Shown one piece after another: positions 628-59,303 of a DNA stretch of 64,000 nucleotides. The stretch lies in the NCBI GenBank assembly GCA_043228905.1, contig JBHGNT010000017.1, forward strand, positions 9,982,001 through 10,046,000, read 5' to 3'. The position numbers were made by a program, and so were the translations under genes. Origin of the DNA: Azolla caroliniana. Taxonomy: Eukaryota > Plantae > Polypodiophyta. Numbering within the stretch: the stretch's first letter is position 1; each line of letters starts with the position of its first letter. The notes under the pieces are model-generated. The model did no database searches. It worked only from the letters and a program-made list of their open reading frames with translations, and was not told the origin of the DNA.

Positions 628-1047
628 TATCATGATATGGCAAGACTTGAACCCATGACCTTATGTTATATAGGTCGAGCTCTTGACCATTACACTATCT
701 ATTGTAACACAATATTATTTTTATATAAGTTTTACTATAGAAGATTAATGTATATTCCAGATTTCTCTGGAACATTCTAGAAGCTTCAGGACTACTCCTG
801 AGAACACTATAAAAGGAGGCACAAGGCATTATTTCGAACCAAATTGGTTCAACGCCAGTCTTAAGCCTCATAGCTATTTTGTATTTACTCTTCACATAAT
901 ATATCATCTGTTATCATCTCTCTCTCTCTCTCTCTCTCCTTCTCTCTCTTCCTCTCTCGTGAGTCTTACGCAGTCAGTCCTCTTAGTACTAATAGTACTT
1001 CCCCTCTCTAGTATTGATTCTCTCTCTGTTTAGTACTATTCCTGATA
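628..1047 (+). repeat. 5' LTR of Tcn1-like element
   Basis: Direct repeat of 5819-6210 plus 14808-14856; TATAAAA at 808; (CT)n tract. Confidence 0.9.
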
Positions 1048-5818: not shown

Positions 5819-6109
5819 TGTCATGATATGGCAAAACTCGAACCGATGACCTTAAGTTATATGGGTTGAGCTCCTGACCATTACACTATCTATTGTAATA
5901 CGTCAGATATTATTTTCATTTATGTTTTACTATAGAAGATTAATGTATATTCCATATTTCTCTGGAACATTCTAGAAGCTTCAGGACTACTCCTGAGAAC
6001 ACTATAAAAGGAGGCACAAGGTATTATTTCAACCAAATTGGTTCAACGCCAGTCTTAAGCCTCATAGCTATTTTGTATTTACTCTTCACATAATATATCA
6101 TATGTTATC

Positions 6110-6164
<55 letters not shown>

Positions 6165-6210
6165 TCTCTCGTGAGTCTTACACAGTCAGTCCTCTTAGTA
6201 CTAATAGTAA
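5819..6210 (+). repeat. 3' LTR of Tcn1-like element (left part; remainder at 14808-14856)
   Basis: Starts tgtcatgatatgg right after the PPT and matches 628 onward. Confidence 0.9.
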
Positions 6211-7073: not shown

Positions 7074-10000
7074 TCACTTCCACTCCTTTCCATGGTCTTG
7101 CGGGACTTTTCTCCCCCTCAAGTTCGACACATCGAGGCGCCGCAAACCAAGCGCACCCGAGAATTGCCGCAACTTGTCCAGACCAAGGGGCTTGGTGAAA
7201 ATGTCGGCGTGTTGCCGATCTATCAAAACATACTGAAGTTCAACTTCACCAAAGAGGACACGCTTGCGGACAAAGTGGTAGTGCACCTCAATGTGCTTAT
7301 TCTGGGCGTGGAAGACGGGTTTCTTCGCAAGTTGGATGTTGTTGAGGTTGTCGTAGTAGATCATCGTCGAATCGGAGACCTCCACCTACAGATCCTTAAG
7401 TAGCCGCTTCAGCCATATGGCTTCGCATGTTGCGATAGCCGCTCCTTGATACTCACCCAAGGGAGAACGCGAATCCGGATGTGGATCGGCGATCCCCGGT
7501 GTTTACGGCCCAGTCGGCATCCGTATAGGCGACTAGTTGCGTGACAGTACCAGTCCGATATAGTGGCCCCCAGTCCTTAGTGCCACTGACGTACCTGAGT
7601 ACGCGTTGCACGCACTGAAGGTGCTCCTCAGTTGGTCATGCCATGAACTGACTAATCAAGCCGACTAGGTAATTGCAGTCCGGTCGGGTGATAGTCAAGT
7701 ATATGAGGCTTCCGACAATCTGTCAAAACCTTTTCGGGTCACAGACCTTTCCGGAGTCGGGGTGAAGCTTCACGGTTCTGTCGAGAGGAGTCGAAATGGA
7801 CTTACAGTCCGCCATCCTGAACTTATAGAGCATACTCAGCACGTTGTCGTGAAGATTCACGCGTGCGTGTGCTACTCGAGCGACCACTAGGGTCTTGAAA
7901 TGGGGAGGACATTCGCGGAATTATCGAAGAGATGACGATCAATGTAAGATTAGATGAAATTTGTTCACTTGAGAAGAAGAAAGATTGTACACTTGAGAAG
8001 TAGAAAAATATGAAGAAGAGGAATATAATTATATTGATGATGGTGGTGTTGGTGATATCACATATTGAGCCCCCCTTTACACAAGCTCCACTAGGGTTTT
8101 TATAGCTCTCTTCATGCACAAAACCATGGGTTTAGAACCATGGTTTTGGGGACACGGTTTTGCTTATGACATACACAATCCATGGGTTTAGAACCATGGT
8201 TTTGTGCACATGGTTTTCTATGGCTGTTTCGTCTATAATTCGTATATGAAAAGGAAATACATAAAATCTACACTATATGATAGTTGTTCTAGTGGTAAGG
8301 CAAACATCTTTTATCTTAGAGGTGCAAGGTTCAAACCTTGCTTGCACCCCTCTGTATGAACTCAGCTAAGTGCCACTAGACCTTGGGCTTATTTGCTAAG
8401 TGCATGTGCAATGTTGCATATCCTTGGTTTATTTGTCTCACTCGGTTTCACACTGTAGCTAAAAAATGTCACGACATCCAGCCCCACCAAACCCGCACAT
8501 CCTCCGGTATGTGTCGAGAAAGGTGAAGAGGTGAGATCTTTGGCAACGGTGATCAACCGAGTTCTTCCGCATGCTTGTCAACCTCGTCTGACTTCTTCTT
8601 CCACTTCGAGTATGCCCAATCTTTCCAACCAAACCACTGTAGCCACCCGATCCACCATATGTGGTGCTCACACCTTCTTCCCCGATCGGTTGTAGTAGAT
8701 CTACCAACCGATGTCATCGATCCAACCGCTCTTCCTTCGTCCACCGCGCGTGTCCTTCGATTGGACTCCTGGCCACTCCTCGCACTCACTGTTTTCAACT
8801 AGGTGTTGTGGATCGTTCGTGTCGATCTCTGATTAGGTCGAGTTTGCCTTTGTCCGGATCGGTCTCCGCCAATCTCTTCTCGGCTCGGTTGGCCTTCATC
8901 TGCATTCGCATTTCGCCGAGTCGGGCTCGATCGATTGATTCCGGCCGGGTCTCACATTGGCACACGGGCGCAACCGCCGAAGTCTCTGGAACAAGTATGG
9001 AGAAAGTCTCGATATGGCTATCCGCTGTCAACTCGTCCATAGCCACCTCCGACTCGATGTCGTTTGCCATGGCTACCTCCTCAATCACGTCGGACTCAAA
9101 CACTTTATCTCCCTCGATCACGCAAGCTTTTCTCATGCTTACACCTTCATCACCCAATGTTTCATACACAATGTGTGTTCCGAAACATTTATCCTCCCTC
9201 GAAGTGGCGTTCGCCGTCCTCGAGTCATCGGCCTCCTCCTTGGCGATCATTTCTTCGTAAGACAAGAAGGTGACTTGTTTCGCACCTTCTCTCTCGGTAC
9301 CGTCATACCAAACCTGAGCCTTTGTATCAACCACTTCATTAACCTGCATTTGTTGGGAGGTCTATTCTTCCTCGATCACCATTCGCCTCGGTTTTGTATC
9401 CCTTGTAAGCTTCATTTCTTTTGTTGGTGGCACGTTGCTCCATCTCGTCCCTCTTCGATCGTCCCTCATGGGCCGTCTTGTTGTCGTCGATATTCTCGCT
9501 CGCCTCTTATCGTGTAGACGGCATACACTTTCCACTTTGCTCCAATCCTCAATGAGGCCATTTGCACCATCATCTTCTTCGAGTTTGAGGCCGATAGCCA
9601 TCCTTCCCATTCGATCGATTGACTTCACGAACATAAGGACCTTATCGACCCCCACCAATCTTTGTTCCCGCTCCGAGAGTTGAGAAAAACGATGCTTGAA
9701 GTCTACGAATGCTTGTGTCGCGCCTTGGTGGGCTTCGCCGATGTCACCCATCGGTCAAAGTTGTGTTGATCTCGTCCCTTCAGTCTCTCATAGCCATATT
9801 CCTCCAATAGAGCCTTCTCGAAAGTCACCCACGAATCATGAGCTTCTAGAAGCTCTTTTACATCTTTGAAGATCGGTTGAGACACCACCCGACAAAAGTA
9901 CTCTAGCCTCATAGCTTCGTCCACACCTCTTGAATCCATCTCCACATTGTAGATTTTTAGAAAACTTTGGAGTTTGAACGCGAATCCGGATGTGGATCGG

Positions 10001-13000
10001 CGATCCCCGGCGTTTCCGGTCCAATTGGCATCCGTATAGGCGACTAGTTGCATGACAGTACCGGTCCGATATAGTGGCCCCCGGTCCTTAGTGCCACTGA
10101 CGTACCTGAGTACGTGTTGCACGCACTGAAGGTGCTCCTCAATTGGCCGTGCCATGAACAGACTAATCAAGCCGACTAGGTAATTGCGGTCCGGTCAGGT
10201 GATAGTCAAGTATATGAGGCTTCTGACAATCTGTCGAAACCTTTTCGGGTGACAGACCTTTCCGGAGTCGGGGTGAAGCTTCACGGTTCTGTCGAGAGGA
10301 GTCGAAATGGACTTACAATCCATCATCCTGAACTTGAAGAGCATACTCAGCACGTTGTCGCAAAGATTCACGCGTGCGTGTGCTACTCGAGCGACCACCG
10401 GGGTCTTGGACTGGGGAGGACGTTCGCCGAATTATTGAAGAGATGACGATCAATGTAAGATTAGATGAAATTTGTTCACTTGAGAAGAAGAAAGATTGTA
10501 CACTTGAGAAGTAGAAAAATATGAAGAAGATAAAGACGAATATAATTATATTGATGATGGTGTTGTTGGTGATATCACATATTGAGCTCCCCTTTACACA
10601 AGCTCCACTAGGGTTTTTATAGCTCTCTTCATGCACAAAACCATGGGTTTAGAACCATGGTTTTGTGCACATGGTTTTCTATGGATGTTTTGTCTATAAT
10701 TCGTATATGAAAAGAAAATACATAAAATCTACACTATATGATAGTTGTCCTAGTGGTAAGGCAAATATCTTGTATCTTAGAGGTGCAAGGTTCAAACCTT
10801 GCTTGCACCCCTATTTATGAACTCAAGTGCCACTAGGCCTTAGGCTTATTTGCTAAGTGCATGTGCAATGTTGCACATCCTTGGTTTATTCGTCTCACTT
10901 GATTTCACACCGTAGCCGAAAATCGTCACGACAACGTAATGCCGCTGGCTGATCAGTATGACTTCAGGGGTTCGGATCACTTCGATCCCGAGAATGCAAT
11001 GGAGGTCCCCCAAGTCCTTCATATCAAATGATGCCGCAATCTGGAGCTTTACGTGGTCAATTTCATCTAGGTCGACGCCGGCGATGACCAAGTCAACAAC
11101 AATAAAATACTAACCGGCCCAAGTTGACCTTGCCAAACTAACAATGAAGAGTCTGATTTAGACGTCGCAATTCCCATTCGACGCAATCGATGTGTAATCT
11201 TCGCGTTCTAGGCACGCGGAGCTTGTTTTAGTTCGTAAAGGGACTTCTTCAACCAGCATACCGTCGAAGTGTTCGTTCTGGAGTGAAATCCGGGGGGTTG
11301 TACCATGTACACTTGTTCCTCAACCTGGCCTTGCAGGAACACACTCTTTAAATCCATCTAATGTAAGTGCCACCCCTTCGTCGTAGCTACCGTAAGCAAA
11401 ACACGAATGGTCGTCATCTTCACGACCGACGCAAACGTCTCATCGTAATCGATGTCGTGTTGCTGAGCGTAGCCTTTTGTTACTAACCGGGCCTTGTATC
11501 GGTTGACCGAGCCATCGGTGTTGTACTTGCCCTTGTACACCCACCTGCATCCAATCGGCTTTACACCCTTGGGGGCGTCAACCAAGTCCTAGGTTTCATT
11601 CTCCGCAAGTGCGTTCATCTCTTCCTCCATGGCGGCATGCCAATTCGCGTCCTTTGCCGCTTCTGCATAGCTCTCCGGCTCATGCACTTCTGCCACGCAT
11701 GTCATGTACGCATAGTGATGCGCCATGTACTCGTTGTATCCGAACCGCACAACTGGGTTCTTCTGGCGGGTAGATCGGTGTAATTGCTCATTAACCAATG
11801 TTGAGGTCGTTCTGGCCGACGTGGGCTTCGCTCTTGAAGGCTCGTCATCACTCTTCTCAGAGTCAGATTTGCGTCAATCCGACTCGTCCCTATCCGTCTC
11901 TTCGGCTCCTTACACGGGGAATGCACGGCCAAGTATTCACTACTCGCCGGCTCTTCATATGACTGGTTAAACCAACTCAGTCCCTCATTCGGTCCACTTA
12001 GCCGAAATGAGATCGGACTCTCTTCAAGAGTTCCGACTTCACGTTCATCAGGAGGAATCTCAACCTCGCTAACCTCATCTTCAAAACGCGGATTGGAGTT
12101 GAGGTCCAGAGTCGGAGGCAAATACCAAGCCGCGGACTCATCGAACACAACATTGCGACTTACGCGAGCTTGTTTGGTTCGGGGGTTATAACACTTATAA
12201 CCCTTCTATTCGTCCGAGTAGCCGACCAAGATACACTTCTCAGCTTTCGCATCCAGCTTCTTCCACTTCTCCTTCAGCACATGCACATACGCGATGCTAC
12301 CAAAAACCCTCAAGTGTTGTAGATTCGGCTTCCTTCCGAAATACAGCTCATGTGCCGACACTTTTTCTCCGATCCGATTCTTGATGTAGACCGCTTCGGC
12401 CCAATAGAACTTGGGCATGCTCTTTTCTTCCAACATTACTTGCGCTTCTTCCACAACCGACCGATTCTTCCTTTCGGCTATGCCGTTTTGCTCCGGCATA
12501 TACCTACAACTGAATTCGCGCCGAATTCCCATTTGTTGCAGATAACTATTGAATTGGCCGGAACAGTACTCTTTTCCACCATCCGACCGCAGGCACTTGA
12601 TCTTCCTCCCTGTTTCCCTTTCGGCAAGATTTTTGATTTTCCGAAAACATTCGAAGACTTCACTCTTCTTTTCGATGAGGTAGATCCATGTGTGCCAGGT
12701 GTAGTCGTCGATGAAGGAGATGAAGTATCGACTCCTGCCAAGACTCACGTTCTATGTCGGTCCCCATACATATGAATGTATTAAGTCGAGCTTATTTTGG
12801 TTCCGATTACGCTCGTTGGGGAAAGGAAGTCGGTGTCGCTTCCCTAGCTGGCAAGCTTCACAAATTTGGGCCTTTCGACCACTGAACTTTGGCAATCCGA
12901 ACACAACTTGTTTCGATCGCAAGTCCTGAAGCCTTTGGTAGTTGACGTGGCCTATCCGCTTATGCCACAAGTCGATATCCGACTCAACTTTTTGCCCTTT

Positions 13001-22507: not shown

Positions 22508-24502
22508 ATGGGTTCGGATGCAGGTAATGGCGGTGGTGTTCCAAGGAATACATGGAGTGATGAAGATCTACTCATGATAAAGCACCTATTGGGCCCTTCT
22601 GCCATAGCTCAGCTCTCATGGAGTTTGCAAGGTTTAACACCTGTAGGGGGAAGGAGACTGAATGAAATAGCTCTTCAGCAGAGGCTCCATAACCTCGTTG
22701 AAGGATCAGCCGTAAATTGGACGTATGCTATCTTCTGGCAACTCTCAAGCTCGGCAAAAGGGGAAGAGGTACTGGGCTGGGGGGATGGTTACTTCAAAGG
22801 TCCTAGAGAGAAGCAAGAAAAGCCAAAAGATGAAGATCAAGGAGGAGGCCCAGGAGAAGAAAAAGGTTTCCATCATTCTATGACAGTTGATGAACGCCTA
22901 AAACGACGAGTCCTTCGCCTCTTACAAACCCAATTCTGTGCAGCGAGTGACGGTGACCTTATGGACATCGCGGAAGGAGACTTTGTTTCTGACACAGAGC
23001 TCTTCTACTTGATCTCTATGTTTTATTCTTTCTCGCGGGGTATGGACGTTCCAGGATTGGCCTTAGAGTCACAAAACCATGTCTGGTTGACTGGGAACAA
23101 CCTCGATAACTCTTCGGTCTGTACCCGATCTTCGATTGTGAGGATGGCTGGGATTCAAACCATCGTTTGTGTCCCGACTCTGAATGGCGTGGCCGAGCTC
23201 GGATCCACCGATCTTATCTTCGAGAACCGTAAACTCATCCATGAGATTAAGGTCTCATTTACAGAAGATGTTTGGGAGAAGCCACAATTAGACGAAACCC
23301 GCCACAGTCATAATAATCACAATCTTTCCTTGGTTAAGGAAGAGGCTTCGGTGTCACCTCCAGAGAGCCCAATTGTTACATTAATGCTCAATTCAGGGAA
23401 GCAAGAGAGTATAAGATCAAGTGTAACTCCAGATCGAGATCAACATTTTCATGGAAGCATGCTGACCACCAAAATTCCTGACCTAAGATCATCGCTCCCA
23501 CTTGCGCCCAATTTTCCGTTGAACCCGTTTTTGGCTGCCCAAAGGGCAGCAGCAGCCAAAGTCTTCCAAGCTCACGGATGGCAACAAAAGCAATCTTTTC
23601 CAGCGAACAACCCACCTGGTTCAGAAATCGCTCATGGAGGAACAAACCACCGCGTGAGCCCAAATGGCACGAATTTGAGCACCAAAATAGGTGGACATCT
23701 GTTCTTTCACAAGAGCGATCCGTCTCCGCAGTACTTGCCCAAATCGGACATGAATGGGCAGATGATCCGGCAGAAGGAACCAACAGTCCAGATGCACTCG
23801 TCGTCAAAAAACGGGGGAGAGAACACCAAGCAACAGTATGAGGGTCTTTCACTTAATAGCAGCATGCCGGCTAGTAGGCCATCATGTATTGTAGAATCGG
23901 AACATTCACAGCATTCAGATTTAGAAGCATCATGCAAGGACACTCTGGAAGAAATGAGGCCTCGAAAGAGGGGACGCAAGCCGGCGAATGGTCGGGAAGA
24001 GCCTTTGAACCACGTAGAGGCCGAAAGGCAAAGGAGAGAGAAACTAAACCAACGGTTTTATGCATTGAGATCGGTGGTCCCCAATATCTCCAAGATGGAT
24101 AAGGCATCTCTTCTCGGGGATGCAGTTTCATACATTCAAGAACTCCAAGGGAAGCTTAGAGAGATGGAGCAAGAGAGAGAAGAGCTTTTACTGGCTAGTG
24201 GCATTGACATAATGGAGATTAGGAAAGATCGGGTTCGTAACTTTTCGGCTAATTCTAGAGGTGCCCCAACAATTGACTTACAAATTCATAATGGTGAGGC
24301 TACAATACAAGTGACTTGTTCTAGGGAATCACACCCTCTCAATAAGGTTATTGAGGGTTTGAAGGAGCTAAACGTTGAGTTCCCGACTGCCAATGTGGCT
24401 CTTGTCGATGAATCATTCCTTCACACATTTAAGCTCGATGTGAAGAGCTCTAGCAACATCACCCAAGATTTGCTACATTCGGTTCTGACGAAAGGCCTAT
24501 GA
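22508..24502 (+). CDS. MYC2: MYC2-like bHLH transcription factor (subgroup IIId/e), 664 aa, intronless
   Basis: bHLH-MYC_N/JID ([45 protein letters not shown]); b[57 protein letters not shown]; ACT-like C-terminus. Symbol is family-level; orthology untested. Confidence 0.93.
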
Positions 24503-27520: not shown

Positions 27521-29255
27521 GCTCACGTGAGATCTTGCAAAATGGACAAACCAGTTGTATTGCAAAATCCTTCTTTAATAATATTATCATTGGAATTGTG
27601 TTTGTTTATTTAGTATTCTTTCTGTTCTTGTTACGTATCTTGAGCATGTAAAGAATCTACTCTCACTGGAATTGTGTTTGTTTATCGTTGGAATTGTGTT
27701 TGGGCAAGACTCTTACTCTCAGCCACATTGCCAAATATATCCTCATTCGTTGCAACGTCATCTCGACCAGACACATCATGCATGTGAGTTATGAACATTA
27801 TGAACACAAAATATTCCGCAACAAAAATACATTGTTATCTCAATATTCATCATAGAGTTCCATGATTACATGATGGGGATCAAGCAACAAACAATAATGG
27901 TTTTACTTGTCCAAACATAACTTATACATTAATTTTTGCAAGGAAAAATAGTTGCATATCTATTCCACTAAACATTGTGTCCCTAGCCCCTCGACCGAGT
28001 AACTGGTCTTGTCCTTGATCGAGCCCACATCTTCAGCCTTTTTCTAGATGGTTGCCCATTTTGCCTCAAGTGCTTCTTTCACCCATTAAGTGTGTCCTCC
28101 TCCGACAACCTATCCATCGCCTCCTCCGATCACGCGTCACCAACTTCTTGAGCTAACGGTTCAAGAAGAATGGGATTTGTTGTGACACCATCAGGTTTTG
28201 GGCTCAGTGGGGTTGATTTAAGGTTTTGGGACTCGAAGAATTGTTGTATCAAGTGTTCAAAAACACTGTTATTATGCACCTCAAATTTACATGTTGGGAC
28301 TATTTCATTATTCTTCATAGACATGCCCAATTAACTACAATCTTCCACAAGAATAGGGTGACGCTGAACTGAAGGAGATATTTGGGCAGGTCTCTTACTC
28401 TCAGCCACATTGCCAAATATATCCTCATCCATTGTGTTAAGAATTAGGTAATTAACTATGGGTTAATTGGTACCTAATTATGTGATTAAGCAACGAAAGA
28501 TTATGTGATGTGTGTGTGTATGTATGTGAGAGTGAGAGGGAGAGAGAAAGAACACTTATGAATAACGAGGCAAGATGGGTGATGATTAACTATATTAAAA
28601 AGCATCATCAAATACAAAAATACCCACAATGAGGTATATATAGATCTCATGTGCAAAGGTGCACATGTGTGAGTAGAATATAGGTACAAACCTATAAGTC
28701 CTATAAATGAACATGGGAGTGGAGGATCTACAATGTATTTCACTCAAGCTCAAAATCCTACTTAAGGCTTTGTTACCGATTAGGAAGACGGTCTTCGGTC
28801 AGTCCTTCGACCTAGACCTCCAAGTGATTGTGGAACAACGAATGGGGCGTCTATGCGTAATGCGTAGGGGAATGCTCCCCGTAACCTATCAGCGTATAAG
28901 GGGGACGGCTACAACCGACTCCTTAGCAATGGTTACACTTACGTTCTTAGACACTCAGATATTCTAGACACACAGTAAATTAGCCGTAGCTATACGCAGA
29001 CTTTCAGAGAAGATAGAATTCTATTACGATACGCTTCTTTACATTCCAAAAATACACGCTCCCTCTATCAGAGGTTTTTTGCCCTTTATATACGCAGGGT
29101 CTATTTAGCTGTTCACGCTTCTTGCGTGAACTGTTACATGCGTTATGATCTTATATTATTTCCTATTCCTACGATCTTGTCCGTCGGTTACTATTCCGGC
29201 GGACAACACCTGGCACGCCTGTGGGACAGTGCCCTAGCACGCCGGACCCATCCAG

Positions 29256-32154
29256 TTAATCTTCTTCCAAAATGGCCCGGATGTTTGGCTCTGCTACGGT
29301 GTCCGCGTCTGGAGGTGACGTAGGGCCCGTAGGTGCATCGTGGTCTGGCTCCCCTGTTTGGTCGGAATGGTTTCTCCTGGTGTTGCAGGTGTCGTGTGGG
29401 GGCAGTCTGGGTTCGGTGGGCTCTTGTTGAGCTGGCGGGTTGGGCTCCGCCGTCGTCGTGCTTGCGGTCGACCGCGGCTCTGTCTCAATCGTTACTTCCT
29501 CCATGGTGTCGGCTGTCTTTGTACGTTCCGGGGAGTGGGGTTGCGATTCCGCCTGGCCCGCACCGTTCTCCGTGTGGTCCGATGATAGCGTGGGCTCCTG
29601 CGGATGGAGCTCCTCTTGGGCAGCGGTTTCGCTGTTTGGTACTGTGGGGGACTCCGCTCGTCGGTCCGCGCTGTTTACCGTCGTTGTAATTTCTGGTGAT
29701 CTGGCATGAGGTTCCTCTTCTTCGACCGTGCCCGGAATTGGCGTCGCGCTGGATTCCTCATTTGTTCGCGTGTTGCCGGCTTGTGTGATCTGGTGAAATA
29801 GCTCCTCCTAGCTTTCACCAAAATCATCCAAGAGTTGCGCGAGTTCTTCGAAATGTTGGTCCGCTAGCGCATGATAGTCTTGCGCTAGGTCCTCGCGTAC
29901 AGCCGCAATGCTCTCCTCATTTAGTTTATTGAAACCTCGACTGCCCTTTTGCCGGTTCTCCCAGTCCGCACGATACGTGTGCAATTCCGTTGCTTGGGTT
30001 GCCCACGCCATCCATCCTTTGTCCAACGCCGTTTTCAATTGCGCTGTGAACCTCTCCCGATTTGTTTGGGGAAGGATACGCACGTTGTCTGTGATGGCCT
30101 GGCAACGGTTGCATGCGTCCTCCATCGACTTCTGGAGGTTTGCAATTTCTTGCTGCCTAACCGCCACCGCTTCTTCGTATGTGGCCTTCAGGCCCGCCCA
30201 TAGCTAGGATTCCTTTGCGTGTTGTTCTTCTAATTTCCCCATTTCATTGTTTAGGCGGATTTCGAGCTGATGCCTTCTTTCCTGTTCGACCACCAGCTGC
30301 TCATCGAACCATACCTTCCTTTTCTCTAATAAGGCCTGGAGTCCCGCAATTGCCGCCTCCGATTTCTTCGCCTCATCCCATTATTGGGCGTTTTCGTCTT
30401 TTGTCCAGATGTGCTGAGCTACCTCCGTAACGAGTTTCTCTTCAAGGGTTTTTACTGCCTTCTGGCCGTTAGCCCAGATCTCCTTTTCTTTGTCTGAGGA
30501 TTGGCGCAGTTCAGCTCGAAGGCGGTCAATTTATGATTCCCCTAGCTGCACGACCCTTTTCTTCCTTCAAAGCGTCGATGGCGTAGTTTGGTGGCAGGGT
30601 TGCGTGTTGCGCCGTAGTCACGTTAGCTTCCAACTCCGCGATACGTTCGTTGGCTTTTTGCAGCTCGGCTTGGGTCATTTTCACCTTCTTCCAGACATTC
30701 TTATTTTTAATGGCCATCTCCTTGGTGCTCGTGCTGACTTTTGCCAGTTACCTATGGACTTCGACTAGGGCTGTGTTTAGTGGGGGTAGCTCCATCCCCA
30801 CTCGGCGTACCCCGGCATTCCTCTGTCTACCAACCCTGGCTAGCCAGTCCTCATCGTCGCTCTCCGCCGTTTGTGTTAGGGCGCGCTCGATCACCTGGCG
30901 CTCCGCGTGCTCCTCATCCATTCGTTGGAAGGCTTTTATCTGTTGTGTTGCCATGAATTCCATGAGCTCAAAAGAGGTTCCGAACTGTAAGAGGGCGCTG
31001 AACTCATGGGCCGTATCCGGGATATCTGGATATGCCAAAACCTCGCTTTCTGCCGTCAATATGGCTTTCCCTCGTTGGGACTGGGTCAATACGGCTTTCC
31101 CTCTGTAGCTGCGGAGCCATCGCCTTTGGTCGTTGTCTCTGCCGCCGTAGGAATGTCTTTGACCAATCCTCGCCCATCTTTCCTGTCCAATCTACGCTGT
31201 TTCGGTCTAGGGCTAACCTACCGTGTTTCGGTGTCTGGCTATGGGGCTGCTTCCACGGAACGTGCCAGCCGTTCCTCCTGCGTTGTCCGTGTGTCTGGTT
31301 GGGCAGGTTGGGGTTCCTCTTCCCACTCTAGGCTGCTATAACTCCGCTAACCTGCGCTTCGCGGATTGAGGCGGGGGCGTGGGTCGGCTGGGCTGCGGTG
31401 CAGGCAGGCCTCGGGATGGGAATAGTACCGTAAGGTACTGTTGTATGATCGGCCAAAGCTTTTTTCCGGCCTGATACGCATGCAGACCTTCCCTTAACGC
31501 TGGCCCTGTGATGACCCCCCAATCGACCGCACGCCCTTCAAAGGTATCGATAATGATGCCCGCCTTCTGTTTGGGCATCCCATATGCGTTGACATGTACG
31601 CAACTGACCTCTAACAGGAACTTGGCAACTTCACGGAAGAAGGGATCCGGGATCTGCTTCGTTCTATAGGCCTTGGCGGAGGAGGAATAGGGCCTGAAAT
31701 ATCGCTGCAGCGCCTCTGCAGGAGGGATTTCGAAATGCCTTTCGCCTAGAGATGACAAGTCCAACTTTTTCCAGATGGAAGAGTTGGTGACCGTGTCGAT
31801 GTTAAGCTTCCTGGCGATGTCTATGGCATCCGAGTGTGGGGGTGCCTCTGCGACCCGGATGTACCCATCCAAGCGTTTCTCCATGAGCCATCGGCGTAAG
31901 GCAGTAGAGATGAAGATCGGCATCGCTAGAGTAGGTTCGTGGGAAGGAGACTGGTGGTTGCGGTGGGCTGGAGCTCTGTGATAGGATGGAGGAGAAGGCG
32001 AGGGGGAGGAGCGATGGGAGCACTGATAGTTAGAGGGTGGGTTTCTGTTTTGTGCAGAAGATCTTCTATTTCCTTCTTTTTGTGGCTTAGGGTTCATTGG
32101 GCGGTGAGCCATCGTGGTGCCGCGTGTTCTTGAACTAGGAGTCTGTGCATGCAT
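29256..32154 (-). pseudogene. Accessory ORF region between integrase and 3' LTR (sense orientation)
   Basis: ORF pieces 31336-32154, 30748-31089, 30526-30717, 29808-30167 and 29256-29504; globular part (..GRAVDWG..) then coiled-coil-like and Pro/Thr-rich parts. Confidence 0.6.
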
Positions 32155-32299
32155 TTAGTCCTTTTAATAGTGTCGCTATCTTCTCTCTCTCTCTCTCTCT
32201 CTCTTTTTTCGTAATGGTTATATACAACCTATTTTTACATTATGGTACAAGTGGGGCCGCCCATTTATGCCGCGGGTTCTCCGGCTCTGTCTTGTTTGG

Positions 32300-34953
32300 C
32301 GGTGAATGGGTTAGGTGGCGTATATCCCAGGTAAGGTTTAAGGCGAAACCCATTCACCTTTTGCCGTACTACTTCCCGGCCAGCGTACCTAGTTGGAACG
32401 TGCCTTGCTCCGCTCCAATTATCCAGTATGGGCCGGTCTAGTGGAATCGTAACTTCCCTGGCATATGGCCCATGCGGGTTTGGAAAACCAGCACCGCTCG
32501 ACCGACGGCGAACTCCTTTTCCCTTGCGTTCCGATGTCGATCCACAAACGCTTTACGCTGTCGCTGTTCCTGCTCCAACACAGCCATGCTGTGTACTGTT
32601 GTTCCTCGAGTTCGAGTAGCTGGTGGAGCCATAGCTCCTCCGACTGGGCTTCCGAAAGTCGGTCCCATACCTGAATCCGCAAACTGGGTACCTGAAATTC
32701 GACCGGCATCACAGCCTCCAGCCCAAACGCTAGTCGAAACGGTGTTGACTGTATGCTTGTTTTGTAGCTGGTTCTGTACGCCCATAACACACTCTGTAAT
32801 TTGGTATCCCAGTCCGTTCTATTTTCATTGACGATTTTCTTCAAGATGGTCTGCAACGTCTTGTTAGTGGATTCCGCTAACCCATTCGCCTGTGGATAAT
32901 ATGGCGTACTCTTCTTATGGACTACAGCGTAATGATGTGTTAGTTCCCGAACCACCGGATTGAGAAAGTGACTCCCCTGGTCATTGATGAGCTCAATCGG
33001 GCAGCCGAACTAGCACCAGATGTGCTCGTAAAGGAATCTGGTTGTGACGGCCGCCGTATTTTCTCGTAGTGCCTTTGCTTCTACCCACTTGGTGCAATAA
33101 TCCGTAGCTACCAATATGTATTTATTGCCCGTACGGGCTGCCGCCGGTGTGAAGGGGCCCACAAAATCCAATCCCCACTTTTGGAAGGGGTCTAGCGGCA
33201 ATATGGGCCCATCCGTTGACACAAATCACACTTTCTACAATACTCGGATGCGTCCTTCTGCGTTGTTGGCCACCATAAGCCCGCTTGCCATATTTTCTGG
33301 GTTGTAACGTCGCCCGCGTAATGGCCGCCTGCCGTGCCGCAGTGCGCCTCCGTAAAATTGCTTCTTTCTCATCCTAACGTACCCCACGTCGCCAAATGCC
33401 GTCACTTCCTTTGTGAGATATAAAACTCCTTCTACGAGGCAGAAGTGACGGCTTCGGACGACTAGTCATTTCTTCTCATCCGTGCGTAATTGCGGTGGAG
33501 GCAGTCCCGTAGTCAAAAAGTATGTCATTTCCATAAGCTACCGGTCCGGAAAGGTCGATTCCGTTCTTTCTGCTAGTACTGCTACCCGCAGGATGTCGGC
33601 ATCCAATAAATCGTCGTCATCTTTCTATATTGTTTCTCCATTCTCGAGTTTGCTCAAAAAATCTGCCACTGCGTGTTGCGTCCCTGGTCGGTGCTTGATT
33701 ACGAAATCGAATTCTTGAAGCAGCAACATCCATCGCGCCAATTTCCTCGTCAGGGCTTGTTTCTCCACCAAATACAACACTGCCGAATGATCCACGTGGA
33801 ACGTGAACTTCCTCCCTAGTAAATAGTGCCGGAATTTATTGATGCTATAGATCATCCCTAGCGCCTCCCGCTTCGTTGTGGTATAATTACGCTCTGCTGT
33901 TGATAATTTGCGACTAGCATAGTACACTGGCCGGTACCAGTTTGGTTCGGTGAGCTGCATTAGCGCACTCCCTATTGCTATGTCCGAGGCGTCGACCAAT
34001 ACGTGGAATGGCTTCGCCCAAACTGGTGGTTGTACGACGGGAGCCTGTGTGAGCATTATCTTAAGTGCCTCATAGGCCTTGTCCTCCGTTGCGGTCCATT
34101 GGAAGGGAGTCTGATGTACGACAGCATGTAACAGCATGGCGAAGTCCGCCAAATATCGTATCATCCGACTATGCCACTATATTTGTCCTAAAAACTGACC
34201 AAGTGATTTTGCGTTTGTCGGAGTTTTGGCTTGCGTAATCGCAGAGATCTTGTTCGGATCGACCGCTATTCCCTCCTTGCTGACTATGTGGCCCAGGAGA
34301 GTCCCGCTGGTCACGCCAAAAGCATATTTCGCGGGATTCAGGCTTAAGCATGTGGTGCGACAACGTTCCAGGCACAGTTGCATGTGCGTAAAATGGTCTA
34401 TTGTTCTCCCATATATTGCAAAGTCGTCTAAGAAAACTTGCATGAACGCTGGAATGTATTCCCCAAAGATCTCCGTAATTGTCCGTTGAAATGTTGCCGG
34501 CGCCATCTTTAGCCCGAACATCATGACGACTGCCACATAGACTCCCCAGTCCGTGACAAATGCCGTCTTTTCTTGGTCCTTAGGATGCATGTGTACCTGG
34601 TTATACCCATTGAAGCCATCTAAAAAACTGTACATCCCATGTCTTGCGACGACGTCTAGTACGCTATCGGTGAAGGGTAAAGGGAATGCGTCCGTAATGG
34701 TTACAACGTTTAATTTTCGGTAATCCACGCATACCCATATTTTGCCGTTTTTCTTTGGAACGACCACTATCGGGCTTAACCATGTGGCTTGTTTAACGGG
34801 CCGTATGAACCCTGCCTTCAGGAGTTTGTCAATTTCTTCTTTTACGCGGGTCGCGTAGTTCGGGTTCATGCGGTAACGGCGCTGCTGGACAGGTTTTGTG
34901 TCGGTTGCTAAATTGATCTTATGCTGATAGAACTTGGGATCTAACCCCTTCAT
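32300..34953 (-). pseudogene. Gypsy pol (RT, RNaseH, integrase)
   Basis: PVQQRRYRMNP..WLSPIVVVPKKNG..VDYRKLN..FLDDF; VDASDIAIG..YYASRKL..ERNY; WGLDFVGP; YYPQANGLAESTNK. Confidence 0.92.
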
Positions 34954-34954
34954 G

Positions 34955-35541
34955 AAATATTATGGATGAAGGACTTCATCGGAGAGCTCGGTATCCGACA
35001 AGATGAATACAGACTCTATTGCGACAGTCAAAGTGCCATCCATCTTGCTAAGAATGCGGCCTACCATTCCCGGACGAAGCATATCCAACGAAGATATCAC
35101 TGGATCCGGGAAAGAGTAGATGACCAGGAGTTCGCACTGACGAAGATCCACACGGTCGAGAACGGGTCAGATATGCTGACCAAAGTGCTGATACCCAACA
35201 AGCTGGATGCATGCCGGAAGAGGATCGGATTAGTAAGACACCCCATGCCGGAGTGAAGGGGGAGTTTGTTGGGAGACAGGTCCCTCCGGATGGGAAGGGA
35301 GAAGAACAATACTGAAACCGGATGAGGAGTACCCGGCTACGGAGAGCCGGATGGTGCAAACCCGGTGAGGAGTGCTCACTGGATGAAGAGACATATTCGT
35401 AAATATGTTTCTGAGAGTCCATCATGGCTATATTTGTAAATAGCCGAAAAGTCATATTAGTATAAATATGACTTAGGGCAAACTTTTAGAAGTAGTTGTT
35501 ATTCTTGTTGATGCAAGAAGAGAGAGAGCGTGTAACCGTGT

Positions 35542-35593
<52 letters not shown>

Positions 35594-35862
35594 GTCGTTG
35601 CCTCTGTTGAAACCGTCGCCTGTGGCGAAGATCGTGAGCACGAGGTCGTTGCCTCCGTGAACTCACCGTTGTACATTCTAACATAGTGATAGTTTGCAGC
35701 CTGTGGGCTGTCGTGGTTTTTCCCTAGTTTGGGGTTTTCCACGTAAACATCCTGTGTACTCTTCTCTTCTTTGTGTCATGCATTTATCTCCCGTTTTCTG
35801 TGTATGATTCTAAGCTTGGTTGAGGCCGAGCGTTGCGTATACGGAGCGTGCAGTTCCTGTCA
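34955..35862 (+). mobile_element. Copia family B 3' fragment: RNaseH end, PPT and LTR (35267-35862)
   Basis: YCDSQSAIHLAKN..RTKHIQRRYHWIRE; PPT gtgaagggggagtt; LTR matches the 53862-54429 solo LTR in reverse. Confidence 0.88.
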
Positions 35863-38800
35863 GCACTTAACCAGTTGCGGTTGTGGGTGTCATCCTTCGC
35901 TTCTTCGAAGCTTTCTGGCTCTCCCTCATCGGTCCGCAACACATGCTCTGCATCGGGAAATCTCTGGGGGGGCCTTCTCTCTTTTAGAGGATATCTCCGT
36001 CTTTGGGCTGTGGTAACCGGCTCCTCCATTTGCTCTTCATCCGAATCCGGTTCGGGGTCTTGGCCGGTTCCGGTTTCGGCTTCCTCTACTTCTTCTTCTG
36101 CCGGTTCGGTATCCTCACCGTAACTGGCTGGTTCCTCGAGTGCTAACCGGTCTCTTGCAGGTTGGGTCTGATCATCATAGAATCGATCCTTACCGGTCGA
36201 CTCAGAGTTCATTATCTTCTTCTCCGACTCCTAGTCGGCGAGCGTCTTGTCCTCCATGAAGATAATATCTCGACTCCGGAATACCTTCTTGTCGGCCACG
36301 TCCCACACTCGGTAGCCGAACTCATCGTCGCCATAACCGAGGAATATGCATGGCTGGGTCTTTGGATCCAACTTTTGTCTCCGGTCCTTAGCAACATGCA
36401 CATACGCAAGACACCCGAATACCTTCAGATGCCGATAGGACACTTCCATACCGGTCTAGACTCTCTGTGGCGTGTCTCCGTCCAAGGGTATTGAGGGTGA
36501 TCTGTTTATCACATATGTCGCCGTCGACAGTGCCTCAGCCCAAAACTTCTTGGGTAGTTTTGCATGCGCGAGCATACTCCGGACCCTCTCCATTATGGTC
36601 CGGTTCATCCTCTCGGCCAACCCGTTTAGTTCCGGCGTCTTCGGCATGGTAAATTCGAGCCGAATTCCTTTCGAGCAACAGTACTCCTCAAACTGCCCCT
36701 GGTATTGACCTTCGTTATCTACTCGAACCGCCTTCAGCTTCCGGCTGGTTTCTCTTTCCACTCTCGCGTGGAGCTCTTTGAAGACGGATAACACCTGATC
36801 CTTCATCTTCAACGATGTGGCCCACAGCTTCCGCCTGTGGTCATCTATGAACGTCACGAAGTACTGGGATCCGGCATGTGACTTCGTGTCCACTTGACAT
36901 ACATTAGTATACACCAACTATAGTGGTGCATTACGTCTCATCGGTGGCCTCGATCGGAAGGAGGTCCGGTTTTGTTTACCGGCTAGACAATCAGTGCACT
37001 TCTCCAAGTGCACGTTCTTCACTGGAATGAGGTTGTTGTCTGCAAGCCTCTTCATCCCCTTCTCGCTCATGTGACACAACCTCTTGTGCCACAGCTCACC
37101 GGCAGTGTCGGATGCCACGTTCACTTTGTCCGGGCATAACCGGGCATTCATCAGGTACAACGTGTTGACCTTCCGGGCCCGAGCCACAATCAGGCTCCCT
37201 TTGCTGAACTTCATCATACCATTGCGGATGCTACCCGTGTAGCCTTCATCATCTATCCGACCAGTTGATATCAGGTTCAGATGAACCTCCGGAACGTGTC
37301 AGACATCCTTCAGCAGCAGCTTGCATCCGGTTGGTGTTGTCAACCACACGTCTCCTATGCCGATAATTCGGCATATACCTTCATTCCCCATCCGGACACA
37401 ACCGTGATCACCGGTTGGGTAGGATGAGAAGCATTTCCGGTCCGGGGTAAGGTGGAACGACGCTCCGGAGTCGACCACCCAGGTCATCTTGTCGCCGGCA
37501 AGGTTTAGCTCACTCTCCTCGGTGATGAGCATCAACTCTTCTTTGCTTGCCGCGATTGCCGTCGTTCCCTTCCGGTTCGGCCCCCTCTGGTCTTTATCGT
37601 TCCGGTCCGGTGTCTGCTTCAAATCGGTACCGTCCGTTTCCTTGTCTTTTCGGAAGTGCCGACAATTCTTCTGGAAGTGTCCCGGCTTGCCGCAATAGAA
37701 GCAAGTAGTCCTCCCCCTGGACTTTGACCGTGTCCCCGACTTTTCCCGGTTCTGGGGGCTACGGTTCCTTTGTCTTCCGTGTTCCGATTCGGTAAGGAGC
37801 GCTTTGGAGTCGGAGCTCGTATCCTTATCTTTCTGACGCGCCTCCTTATCTAGCAAGCTCGACTTCACTCTTGCTAGGGATAACCGTTTTCCTTCCGGCC
37901 CGGCGTTGCACAAAGTGACAACCAACGTCTCCTAGCTATCTGGGAGGGAACCGAGCAGGAGTAGCGCTAGTACCTCATGGGCGAGAGGTACTTCCAATGA
38001 TGTTGCCTAGTGGATCAGCCCCTGGAAGGCATTCATGTGCTCCGCCATGCTGGAGCCATCTTGGTATCGGAGTCTTACTATCTTCCGAAATACCGAAACC
38101 TGATTAACAACATTTTTGTTTTGAAACATAATGCCGATCTTCTCCCAGAGCTCATGAGCCTTGCTCTCTTCATTGAAATTGTATTATAGACTCATGTCGA
38201 TGAAGGACCGTATGTACGCCGTTGTCTTCATGTGCATCACCTCCCATATCGTGGCGTTGATTTTGTCCGGTCTCTTGTCCCCAAACTGAACCGGCAGCCA
38301 AAGATCTTTAACCACGAGCGTATCCCTCATCTTCGACTTCCACACCGAATAGTTGGAGCCGGTGAGCTTGAACATGCCTCCCAACGATTCGTCCATTTTC
38401 TGTGTCGTTTCGCTCTGATACTACTTTGACAAGAACTACGCGCTCCCGATGAACACCGCTCGGCCACAACCAAGCTTAGAATCAAACACAGAAAAAACGG
38501 GAATGAATGCACGACACAATGGAGAGAAGAGTACACAGGATGTTTACGTGGAAAACCCAAACACGGGAAAAAACCACGACAGTCCACAAACTGCTAGCTA
38601 TCACTATGTAACAATATTCAATAGATGAACACAGAGGCAACGACCTCTTGTTCACTGTCTTCGCCACATGCGGCGGTTACAACAGAGATACGAACTCTTC
38701 GTCTCTTTCTCTTTCTCTCTCTCTCTTTGTACACTGTTGCGCTCTAATCTTGCGCCAACAAGAATGACAACACCTTACTAAAGTTTGCCCTAAGTCATAT

Positions 38801-39080
38801 TTATACTAATATGACTTTTCGGCTATTTACAAATATAGCCTCGATGGACTCTCAAAAACATATTTACGAATATGTCCCTTCATCCGGTGAGCACTCATCA
38901 CCGGGCCTGCATCATCCGGCGGTTGCCAGGCACACGTCATCCGGTTCTCACCGGGTCTTCTGTTGCCGGGCACTCCACATCCGGTTCTCACCGGGTCTTC
39001 CGTAGCCGGGTACTTGTCATCCGTTTGCTCATCGACACTGTTCTTCTCACTTCCCATCCGGAGGGACTTGTTTCCTAACA
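35863..39080 (-). mobile_element. Copia family B 5' half (LTR 38427-39080, PBS, gag, protease, integrase)
   Basis: PBS tagtatcagagc at 38412-38423; MDESLGGMFKLTGSNY; CFYCGKPGHFQKNC; WVVDSGASFH; LNGLAERMNRT. Confidence 0.9.
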
Positions 39081-52100: not shown

Positions 52101-55100
52101 TTAGTGTAAAGTCGTACACAATGATATCGACATCTCATATGTCAAGGGTCGATGTGTTATAGATATTTCTTTTCCTCTTGACGTTGGGCATTCCATCATC
52201 TCTAATGTATACTTGCATGTGAATGCATTCTTTCTTTTAGTATTGTACCAATGCACCTTTGTTGACTTTATCTGATTTTGGCTTTCATGCATCACCATGT
52301 ACAATACTTTATCAATCCAAAATTGGTGACCCATGTCATTGTCATCTGCAGGTGTGGCAATTAACATCCCAACCTTTATTTCTTGTGTGTTTCCTTGCCA
52401 ACGAGCTTCTGCTGCTTTTGTCATCCTCGGTCCCTCTCTGTTGTGGATGGAGCAAGTTGTCAAGATCCACATTAGTTGCACGCGGTGAAGTTTGAGAATT
52501 AGGCATGTGTTGTATAGACCACATAAATGGTATTTGCAAGGGCCACATACCAATGAAGGAATTATCAATAATTCCTCGTTCATCACTAAAGAACATGTCC
52601 CACCATGAGGTATCTTGTGGTCCAACATACTTCTTTGCATTATCAATATGATTCCTTTTGTCCTGTAAGGCTTACATCCAAAAGTTCCTTTGTTCATCTA
52701 CCAAGTCACTGTGCATTTCCTTTTTAGTCTCAATGGGCATTTGTTTTGCACAATGAATAGTAGTTACAAATGTCATTTGAAGCAAGAACTGGCAACCGCC
52801 TTCTGGATCCCACTGTGGGGAAGATGAATATTCCTTTGCATGAAACAATGTACAACCACTTATATCATTTTTCTTTATCAAGACCACGTGATTGAAGCTA
52901 ATATTGTTTAATTGGGCTAACGCTTTCACATTCTCCTCCCCACCATCTGCTATGTATCTCTTAAAGTCGTATATCTCCCTTAAGTGGAGCACATTCGGAC
53001 ATGGAGTATATGCATCACAAATGACATCAAATAACTTTTGTAATGTGAAAGCATCATATTGAGACAATTGTGTAGATAATGTACTGAAGATATAATCAAT
53101 ATGGTCATGTGTGTGACCAACCAGAATGAAGTTAACTTTAACTTTCCCAAACACTCCCTGTTCCACCAACATGCTCAAATATCAGAAGAAAATTGAATTC
53201 TTGTTCTCTCTAGCAGTGTTGTCCAATTCAATGTAGAGAATAAGGGGCAATGGGTGCCCCAATTCATCAGAACACTTTGAATAACAATAATTGCTAGGTT
53301 GGGGTCGTTGTGGACATTCGGGTAAGTAAGGAAGACATGAGGTTTAATTGTTCCATTATAAGCCAAACAACCCACCAAGTGCATCTGAACGAGACATTCA
53401 TCATTGATGTCTTTAGGAAGCCTCCTAAGGTGAGGTACACACGTCTTCTTATTCTGGTTTCTTAAACGACTTCTCTTTGTTGTGCGTTGCTTTTTTCTGC
53501 TCCAGTGCTTGTGTTTCTCGATGGTCCTATAACAATTGTTTATTGATGTCCTTCTCCTTTGTTGTTTTAGCAACTTTAGTCATGCTCTTCAAGTTTGCAC
53601 AAATAGAATAATACCCCGTGCGTACTTTCCGAGGTATGACAACATTAGTGAGTTATGTTGACCACAATCTTGTGAACTGACTGTAGGTGACATATTTATC
53701 ACTTGACGTTAACATATCCGATCTATAGGCATCATATACTTCTCGTCGTGTGTAATTATCTGAAAGATGCAACCTACTAGTACTTGGCATTACTTCACAA
53801 TTAAGGTTGGAGTAGTTCTTCATCCAACAGATTGCATTTCTTCCGGATGCAACCTTCATACTGCCGGGAACTCAAACGCTCCCTATACGCAACGCTCGGC
53901 CACAACCGAGCTTAGAATCATACACAGACAAACGGGAAATAAAACACGACACGAAGAAGAAACCCAAAGAGGGAAAAACCACGGCAGCCCACAGGCTGCA
54001 AACTATTACTATGCTAGAATGTACAACAGTGAGTTCACGGAGGCAACGACCTCGTGCTCACGATCCTCGCCACAGGCGGCGGTTACAATAGAGGCAACGA
54101 CCTCTTTCTCTCTCTCTCTCTCTCTCTGTACACAGTTACGCGCTCTATCTATTCTTGCACCAACAAGAATGACAACAACAACAACAGTCATAAGTTTGCC
54201 CTAAGTCATATTTATACTAATATGACTTTTCGGCTATTTACAAATATAGCCTCGATGGACTCTCAGAAACATATTTACGAATATGTCTCTTCATCCGGTG
54301 AGCATTCGTCACCGGGTCTGCACCATCCGGCTCTCCGTAGCCGGGTACTCCTCATCCGGTTCTCACCGGGCCTGCACCATCCGGCTCTGTTCTTCTCCCT
54401 TCCCATCCGGAGGGACCTGTCTCCCAACACATACTTGGAACGTCGTCGCCATCGACATTGAGATCACCATTGAGAACTCGTTGTTGCACTCTATGTAATC
54501 TCATGTTGCTAACACATAATGAAAACTTGAATGCCACTCTACAACATTGTAATCCATTGACGATATAATACTCAAATGAGATCTTAATGTCTGACAATAT
54601 GTCCTTCACCATCTACATCTTCGTTGCAAGATAGTGTCTTGCTTATCACTAGTGAGTGAGAAATAGTATTGCCTTAATGACCGTAACTTATCCTTCCCAA
54701 TTGTAGACATGCACCCACGTGCACAACAATCTTTGCCGATATCTACTCTAAGTTGGTTCTTAGATGTCACAAGGGCAAACCTATCTCGGTTGTTTTGACA
54801 TGGAACCCTCGTAAAATGCATAGGGCTTGTCGATTGGATTTCTTCTACACATACATTAGTTGGCTCATTTTGTTCATTTACTTCGGAATGTGCAACACCC
54901 ACAATACTTGTGGCAGCTTGATTGTCATTCTCTTCATAGGTTAGATCCTCATTGTTTTTGTACTCATTAATCGAGAACTCATGACTTAGGGCGATAGTTG
55001 ATGGTGACTGAGTATTTGGTGTCCATGCGCAATATTCTTCGACAATAAAAGGTGATCCTATCAAAATAGGATATGTATCCACTAAAAATGGTGAGTTTTC

Positions 55101-55142: not shown

Positions 55143-55549
55143 TATTGTTCAAATGAGGTGCTCTGTACAATATAAGAAAGCATATAACAAATGACTGAAG
55201 GTAAACACATACCTATCAATATAAAAATATAATTTAAAAGAAATCACATTAAATATATATATATATATTGTCGTTTAATACGCAGAATAATCTCCGGCAA
55301 CAACCGAAGGGTAAATCACTTGATACAATCGAACACAGCAGAAATGGGAATGGAGGTAAGTGCACGAACAAACAAAAGAGAATACACAGGATATTAACGT
55401 GGAAAACCCTGAGAAGGAAAAACCACGGGAGTCCACAGACTCCAAACTATCACTATGTAAAGTAATACAATAGGGAGCACAGAGGCAAGGACCTCTTGCT
55501 CACAATCTTCGCCTCGCGGCGGTTACAACAGAGACACAATCTCTGTATG

Positions 55550-55599
<50 letters not shown>

Positions 55600-58315: not shown

Positions 58316-59303
58316 CAAAAGAGAAAATTGTGAAAGGAAAAGAGAAAATTGTGAGATATCCCACATAGGCACGACAAATACGGCTCTCATCATATATAAG
58401 GTAGAGCAAAAGATATTATCTTTGTGTCTATGTGTGGAGCATAGAGAGTTCAAGGTAACTTGAACTAAGAGTGGAGGTGGGCTAGCTACTCGTAAAGGGT
58501 TTTGGCCAACCAAAACCGGACCGGCGATGGAGCCAGTGAGACACTGGCATCCGACGACAATCTGGCGGCAGCATCCGGCAGCAATCCGGTGACGGCGAGG
58601 TGACGGTACCCGGCGACGGCCAGGCGGCGGCATCCAGTGACGGCGAGGCACCGGTATCCGGCGGCAACCGGCGACACACCGGTAACCGACGGCATCCGAC
58701 GAACCGGCGTCCGATGATTAGATAAATAAATATATAAATATATATACATATATACATATACAAGGAGGGCAAGTAAGGATTGGAACCTTGCACCTCTGAG
58801 TTAGGAGTCAATTGGCTTACCATTAAGCCATGCCATTTAGTTGATTTATATTTCTATCATTGTACTTTTACGTGTAAATTCTCATACATTAGAGCTAAAA
58901 TGAGTGACATGGTTATCATGCACCACATGTAATACATAAGCGCCAAATAGCAAGCATGCATTTTATGCATGTCTTGTACCCTCACATGCATCATATGCAT
59001 GAGAGCATCTATAAAAGAAGGAAGGGGGAGGAGAAAAAACGCGTTTTTTCTTTTTTGGTTATGAAATTAAGAAGAAGAAATTCGTTATCAAAATGATCGT
59101 GTAACTTGTTTCTTAAATCCAAAGATAAAAGTTCAATCAATCTCTCTCAATCGTTTAATCTCAACTTCTCTCTTTCCCAATCTATCTTAAATACTTTCTC
59201 GCCAAAGCTTGCGCCAAAGCTTGTACTGACTTTGAATCCTTCCGGTCCAGAACCTCGGCGGTTCCGCCTCACGATCCGCGCGTAGTGATGGATCTTCACG
59301 ACA
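58316..59303 (+). mobile_element. Truncated LTR related to the 7845 family, inserted in Copia B
   Basis: End reads tgtcgtgaagat on minus, identical to the terminus at 7845; TATAAAA at ~59010; adjacent Copia sequence is deleted. Confidence 0.65.

Follow-up and report, generated by a model that had tools for sequence, protein, structure and literature searches.

Long terminal repeats (LTRs) from two unrelated retrotransposon clades of Azolla caroliniana, Tcn1 and Phygy, carry in their U3 a short module made of tRNA-type A and B boxes, antisense to the element and upstream of its TATA box. The module is real, recurrent and under constraint, and a role in chromatin is plausible from its arrangement. 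Captured Pol III boxes are known from the miniature elements Cassandra and Helenus, and here they are present in pol-coding plant LTR elements. An initial annotation of the 64-kb stretch of DNA analyzed here (the window) had proposed a recurrent captured Pol III promoter or insulator. The tRNA-derived A and B boxes, their recurrence and their retention by selection were borne out, while better conservation of the boxes than of the neighboring U3 was not clearly seen within families; "promoter or insulator" is a role that we infer from sequence.

Five A/B-Box Modules in Nested LTR Retrotransposons

The window lies within a 523-Mb plant genome and is made up of LTR retrotransposons nested in one another, with a single bHLH-MYC gene among them. 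When both strands were scanned, exactly five A/B-box modules came up, all in LTRs and none elsewhere in the 64 kb, and these are the five that had been annotated. The modules and their host features are as follows.

628..1047, plus strand: 5′ LTR of T1 (Tcn1 chromovirus); TATA at 807; self-primer at 842-853, complementary to 1048-1061
644..697, minus strand: A/B module of the T1 5′ LTR; A box 697-686, B box 653-644
5819..6209, plus strand: 3′ LTR of T1; TATA at 6002; a Copia insertion cuts the LTR at 6209
5835..5888, minus strand: A/B module of the T1 3′ LTR; A box 5888-5877, B box 5844-5835
7845..8476, minus strand: 3′ LTR of T2, 632 bp, TG...CA termini, ACGT target duplication; TATA 8105-8098; polypurine tract just beyond 8477
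8285..8337, plus strand: A/B module of this Phygy-type T2 LTR, antisense to the element; A box 8285-8296, AGGT 8320-8323, B box 8328-8337
8477..9975, minus strand: T2 internal region, gag-like remnant only
10356..10933, minus strand: second T2 LTR, solo-LTR-like, ACGT on each side; TATA 10622-10615
10746..10798, plus strand: A/B module of the second T2 LTR; A box 10746-10757, B box 10789-10798
58329..59303, plus strand: T3 (Phygy-type) LTR, 5′-truncated; TATA 59009-59017
58778..58830, minus strand: A/B module of the T3 LTR; A box 58830-58819, B box 58787-58778

All five modules run antisense to their host element. They lie upstream of the TATA of their LTR, at distances of 110, 114, 124, 179 and 180 bp. 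Orientation and distance agree with the annotation, as does the separation of A-box start and B-box start (43 nt in T2 and T3, 44 nt in T1). The A-box-to-TATA distance is variable, at about 110 to 255 bp. The A-to-B spacing is the same in the genome's own tRNA-Trp gene, from which the tRNA position numbering of the modules was taken. The modules share with type 2 Pol III internal promoters both boxes and the tRNA-like distance between them. In the T1 5′ LTR, the end of the B box is ∼16 bp from the start of the LTR.

Some details of sequence required revision. The 5′ Tcn1 copy had been given as GGTTCGAGT, and its actual letters are GGTTCAAGT. The hairpin GCAAGG/CCTTGC noted in T2 exists, with the correction that the loop it closes is 6 nt. 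Being close to a palindrome, the B box of T2 also produces weak matches on the sense strand, and these were counted as one site with it. The B box of the T3 window copy is damaged (GGTTCCAATCC); most of 30 genome copies have GGTTCRAATCC.

The Hosts Are of Tcn1 and Phygy Type

T1 is ∼5.6 kb long, contains pol domains and matches SH3_Tf2-1 (E 4e-15), with the chromodomain frame broken in the window copy. In place of a tRNA primer site, the sequence that follows its 5′ LTR is the complement of one that follows the TATA. This self-priming site resembles that of Tcn1, for which self-priming is known (PMC6317226), and the C-terminus looks chromovirus-like. The self-primer (842-853, site 1048-1061) contains the B-box-like GGTTCAAC. 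Read on the RNA strand, the B box in the U3 of Tcn1 is in turn similar to the primer site, and extra pairing may be possible. Such a complement between the sequences behind the 5′ LTR and behind the TATA was also recognized by eye in Selaginella SM-Tcn1 (PMC2864245 supplement); the paper itself reports no priming site.

The annotation had described T2 and T3 as related, and they have in common the polypurine tract, the tRNA-Trp primer site, the termini and a 4-bp target duplication. The primer site that follows their 5′ LTRs is the complement of the 3′-terminal stretch of tRNA-Trp from this genome, and their target duplications are 4-bp NCGN. T2 and T3 are of Phygy type by these two characters, which mark Phygy in the lineage description (PMC6317226). 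Full LTRs of T3 are ∼1.18 kb and flank RT-RH-INT, which is encoded by T3 and by L290. The T2 family is non-autonomous, ∼3 kb long, with a gag remnant and no RT or integrase match. The solo-like T2 LTR and the 5′-truncated T2 copy (7465-10933) are the outcome of a local duplication after insertion, in which a 380-bp segment of the host Copia (9976-10355) duplicates 7465-7844 and takes the place of the T2 primer site.

In a quick tree of the sequences analyzed, Tcn1 and Phygy formed separate, well-supported RT clades. Elements of both have been reported from mosses and club-mosses (PMC6317226).

The Module Is Abundant but Not Universal

Over the whole genome, the strict A+B pattern gave 10,518 matches and the reversed pattern 4. 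In 80 random 10-kb genome pieces (800 kb), 25 A+B matches with at most one mismatch were found, compared with 0, 2 and 3 in three shuffles, so that the boxes are more frequent than in shuffled sequence. Among the first 30 strict sites listed, 12 were in the U3 of Tcn1 LTRs, 11 in the U3 of Phygy LTRs, 5 in a Helitron-like repeat and 2 elsewhere, with none in tRNA genes; 28 of these 30 thus fall in LTRs or the Helitron-like repeat, the exceptions being L226 and L229. At ∼1500-1560 of L226 and L229 there is a non-LTR A/B module inside an 11-12 bp inverted repeat with an internal 8-bp hairpin. The Helitron-like repeat (L132, L222, L230-L233) owes this label to its end, a hairpin plus CTAY. It carries several A/B modules in tandem; these are antisense relative to the 3′ end of the repeat, and T-runs follow the B box at 14-49 nt.

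Most family members possess the module. Scored over 17 box positions, it is present with at most one mismatch in 25/30 T1, 29/30 T2 and 30/30 T3 copies, although these 90 copies lean toward intact ones because they were chosen as best BLAST hits. LTRs of a random sample plus the window were also located by anchors independent of the boxes, to keep the count from being circular. With TATA plus self-primer as the anchor, the module was present in 12 of 13 cases, and the thirteenth was a false anchor. With Phygy U5 anchors it was present in 10/23 (three of them the window's own), all of long AT-rich U3 types; 9/23 were short-U3 or GC-rich LTRs without the module, and 4/23 were truncated.

Copia LTRs served as a control and showed no module of their own among 45 Met primer sites examined. 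The matches in L013, L030, L037, L075 and L189 belong to nested T1-T3 LTRs, and those in L151, L158 and L192 are weak, with three mismatches (L151 being the one inspected). Nor was an A/B module found on either strand of the third Gypsy lineage of the window. The module was seen neither in Selaginella SM-Tcn1, inspected by eye, nor in P. patens RLG1 over its first 400 nt, which indicates that it is not a clade-wide trait.

Within Phygy, the module-less types are nested among the bearers in the quick RT tree (SH-aLRT 88 and 93; L136, L298 and L305 are marked module-less there because their LTRs are truncated), and this nesting suggests loss. The Phygy branch without the module is successful, and the module is therefore dispensable.

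The Boxes Are Fixed While Their Surroundings Are Scrambled

The modules are not tRNA genes. ARAGORN found none in the window, and the Rfam tRNA model gave 12.1 bits on the best T3 copy, below its cut-off of 29, and no match on T1 or T2; a functional tRNA gene was ruled out on this basis. A cloverleaf with four stems and a fixed anticodon is absent from the modules by ARAGORN, Rfam and stem pairing.

For comparison across families, 14 LTR types (10 Phygy and 4 Tcn1, clustered so that types are less than 78% identical) were aligned with their boxes in register. A14, T16, G18, G19, T20, G52, G53, T54, T55, C56, A58 and C61 are invariant, an invariance partly imposed by the way in which the families were found. 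A44 and G45, required by no search pattern, are each present in 14/14 types, G46 in 13/14, and T47 and T33 in 12/14 each. In most flank columns the top-letter frequency is 0.3-0.6, and little order is left in the flanks on either side or in the anticodon arm. The integrases of module-bearing Phygy families are only 58%-67% identical, and the module is retained. Stem pairing averages 2.9 of 4 in the D stem, 2.7 of 5 in the anticodon stem and 3.6 of 7 in the acceptor stem, versus 3.0, 3.0 and 3.6, respectively, in cross-family chimeras; real tRNAs reach 6.4 in the acceptor stem. The constancy of the boxes, the spacing and A44-G45 amid scrambled flanks, stems and anticodon arm points to purifying selection on a DNA site and not on a folded RNA. 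Captured tRNA-type boxes have very probably been kept by selection at the DNA level. The fixed spacing is tighter than TFIIIC needs.

The annotation had asked whether the boxes are better conserved than the neighboring U3. They are fixed across the 14 types; within families, by contrast, they are not clearly better kept (P = 0.32, 0.24 and 0.019, for 30 close copies per family with context-matched flanks). The within-family comparison is a weak test, since a copy, once inserted, decays without constraint, and only the few copies that transpose are exposed to selection. The CpG of the B box decays at 0.10-0.12 within families, compared with 0.09-0.31 for other CpGs, indicating that most copies have no lasting protection from methylation.

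That boxes decay like flanks within families is nevertheless what would be seen if the modules were neutral relics, left in ancestral LTRs by the insertion of tRNA-headed SINEs or pseudogenes and inherited passively ever since. The loss of the module from one Phygy branch, the traces of an anticodon loop (T33 in 12/14) and the occurrence of tRNA-like pieces in many Repbase LTRs, noted in the available text of Kojima 2024 (PMC10886601), all fit such an origin. It does not explain why ∼15 box positions, A44-G45 and the spacing stay fixed while the positions between them and the flanks randomize, nor why position and orientation of the module agree between two unrelated clades. The neutral-relic reading is disfavored, and we regard it as improbable.

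A different possibility is that the modules are working Pol III promoters and that a short antisense RNA is the selected product, tuning silencing or interfering with neighbors. Both boxes are kept with canonical spacing and strictly antisense orientation, as this would require, and the 45 nt upstream of the modules are 64%-87% AT in the 14 LTR types; an AT-rich upstream flank is also a feature of plant tRNA genes (PMC3082873). Where plant tRNA genes have a TATA followed by a CAA motif, the modules show no invariant motif. The downstream side is at odds with a selected RNA. The first T4 run occurs 11-464 nt past the B box, or not at all, in the LTR types compared, and since its position is not fixed, no defined transcript is conserved; terminator, fold and downstream sequence all lack conservation. 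Moreover, the T1 B box ends so close to the LTR edge (∼16 bp) that a transcript from the 5′ LTR would run into arbitrary flanking DNA. An antisense RNA as the selected product is therefore unlikely, if less so than neutral carriage; selection on the DNA site itself accounts better for what is and is not kept.

The Module Was Likely Captured More than Once

The annotation counted at least two independent lineages, and this count stands: Tcn1 and Phygy are separate RT clades, and the interiors of their modules are no closer to each other (identity 0.29) than to tRNAs in general (0.32). Compared among themselves, Phygy interiors have an identity of 0.49 and Tcn1 interiors one of 0.43; shuffles give 0.26. 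A common origin of the Tcn1 and Phygy modules was considered and gave no signal above generic tRNA likeness, in a comparison of low power. Separate captures by Tcn1 and Phygy are likely, as judged from these identities and the tree. The source may have been a tRNA gene or a tRNA-headed SINE. The best tRNA isotype match varies (Arg, Asn, Asp, Lys and His, out of an incomplete set of 21 tRNA types), and neither a tail nor a target duplication, the traits of tRNA-headed SINEs, was seen around the LTR modules.

The genome also contains large arrays in which one tRNA isotype (Asp, Gly, Trp or Lys) is repeated in tandem, with many copies decaying. These are located in G000 at C3:14.64-15.34 Mb, C9:17.68-17.83 Mb, C8:17.80-17.82 Mb, C16:4.99-5.11 Mb and C5:17.99 Mb.

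A Second Module Downstream of the TATA

Phygy LTRs L161, L127, L138, L290 and L216 have, in addition, a sense A/B module ∼70-140 bp downstream of the TATA, and the LTRs with this sense module sit near the base of the Phygy clade. It is decayed in T3, L179 and L217 and was not seen in T2. In the window, comparison with the intact L161, L127, L138 and L290 points to one remnant:

59086..59138, plus strand: probable decayed sense-module remnant in the T3 LTR

The upstream module points away from the TATA, as does the downstream one where present. With this divergent arrangement, both would load TFIIIB on the TATA side and any Pol III would be sent away from it. Some LTRs have a second antisense copy further upstream.

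A Possible Role as TFIIIC Sites beside a Pol II Promoter

The Pol II TATA is retained in module-bearing LTRs. We give an even chance to the view that the A/B boxes are kept as TFIIIC sites, which would hold the neighboring Pol II promoter open in repeat-rich chromatin. This view is suggested by the geometry of the modules together with precedent in fission yeast and human: tRNA genes in fission yeast are orientation-independent heterochromatin barriers that need TFIIIC and Pol III (PMC2040200), and TFIIIC on Alu opens chromatin in human cells (PMC7014570). TFIIIC would bind the A and B boxes in the LTR, TFIIIB and Pol III may then be loaded on the AT-rich side that faces the TATA, and the resulting barrier or clearing of nucleosomes would favor transcription of young copies. 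Any Pol III transcript from the modules would be a by-product. Several results speak against this view: the Phygy types that do without the module, its absence from the Copia LTRs examined, the third Gypsy lineage, SM-Tcn1 and the RLG1 stretch, boxes that are not clearly better kept than flanks within families, the decayed sense module of T3, L179 and L217, the rigid A-to-B spacing and the variable distance to the TATA. T3 LTR pieces, 90%-99% similar, were present in the assembled contigs of 3/4 runs, contigs that hold no information on strand or start; two of these T3-like contig sets cover the module, with an A-to-G at A-box position 15 among the differences listed.

A broader proposal, which we advance only tentatively, is that several unrelated lineages each equipped their promoters, independently, with the reduced promoter of a tRNA gene, which in the oldest Phygy form stood as a divergent pair on either side of the TATA, and so made the Pol III machinery a portable anti-silencing insulator. 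If this is true, the ∼10,000 intact sites would be more numerous than genuine tRNA genes and would alter where TFIIIC sits throughout the genome; roughly 10,000 candidate TFIIIC sites would be added to the repeat compartment. If real, a cis-acting TFIIIC site would offer a simple and portable solution, without need of a suppressor protein, to the problem of what keeps plant LTR retrotransposons open to transcription when they are embedded in methylated repeats. Captured Pol III modules, known from the miniature Cassandra and Helenus, would then be found to serve autonomous elements too, in a different job.

Two further explanations involve other steps of the retrotransposon cycle. Owing to the antisense orientation, the genomic RNA is complementary to the D and T loops of tRNAs, and the U3 RNA could grip these loops during reverse transcription and bring the RNA ends together, for which the split primer site of yeast Ty3 offers a model. 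T3 also has a TGACTCC stretch in common with the genome's tRNA-Trp, its primer. By duplex energy, however, tRNA-Trp ranked anywhere from 4th to 21st of 21 tRNAs over the 10 Phygy modules, and pairing with the tRNA-Trp primer was rejected on these ranks; furthermore, the module occurs in the self-priming Tcn1 and in the Helitron-like DNA element. We consider a role in reverse transcription very improbable. Ty3 inserts at tRNA genes, and by the precedent of Ty1 and Ty3 the boxes could instead be landing pads, recruiting Pol III factors that tether integrases and steer insertions into old LTRs. LTR-terminus motifs within 300 nt upstream were found for 1/46 modules and 3/174 tRNA genes, with no common distance. 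The landing pad was rejected in this sample and has the least likelihood of all the explanations considered. A TFIIIC site beside the promoter remains the reading that we prefer.

Relation to Known Elements

The closest relatives of these modules are in Helenus (TRIMp3), as characterized in the available text of Kojima 2024 (PMC10886601). There, too, the LTR contains tRNA-derived sequence with conservation centered on boxes A and B, mostly without a functional tRNA; several independent origins were proposed, and promoter function is putative, as it is here. Helenus elements are, however, non-coding TRIMs of 311-1263 bp that are thought to be Pol III-transcribed, whereas the hosts here are pol-coding Tcn1 and Phygy elements of 5.5-8 kb and a 3-kb gag-only derivative, which retain a Pol II TATA and whose main module is antisense, pointing out of the element. 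T1, T2, T3 and L290 thus share with Helenus the tRNA-derived boxes A and B inside the LTR and have neither its miniature non-coding size of under about 1.3 kb nor a Pol III promoter whose transcript would be the element. In the same source, which analyzed only elements under 1 kb, autonomous partners were expected to use Pol II promoters and not to share the Helenus LTR sequence, and the only plant Helenus was from Selaginella (PMC10886601).

Cassandra, also a TRIM of land plants, is similar in having a captured piece of a Pol III gene with conserved boxes in both LTRs (PMC10886601, PMC12786077, as far as available). It differs from the modules described here in that a 5S type-1 promoter drives its own LTR-to-LTR transcript and the element is non-autonomous. 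The tRNA-gene barriers and TFIIIC-bound Alu (PMC2040200, PMC7014570, in the parts available) likewise involve A and B boxes that act on chromatin beside Pol II regions; they are host loci or SINEs of yeast and human, and the sites here are predicted ones in plant LTRs.

No case of a TFIIIC or B-box chromatin barrier in a plant LTR was found in the literature. The A/B-box module is not mentioned in the accessible text of the Tcn1 and Phygy lineage description (Neumann et al., 2019; PMC6317226), and no description of such a module in autonomous plant LTR elements was found in the literature searched, which includes few subscription papers. In passages of two later papers, only Cassandra and Helenus/Ajax are cited.

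Other Features of the Window

The third Gypsy lineage occupies 29000-35863, with LTRs at 38427-38958, 53861-54429, 55268-56030 and 60365-61102; it falls outside Tcn1 and Phygy in the RT tree and has 40-bp repeats in its LTR. At 61503-62080 there is a 41-bp array, the palindromic unit of which gives rise to nested inverted repeats. The bHLH-MYC (MYC2-like) gene at 22508-24502 is intronless, encodes 664 aa and lies in an AT-rich island between repeat blocks.
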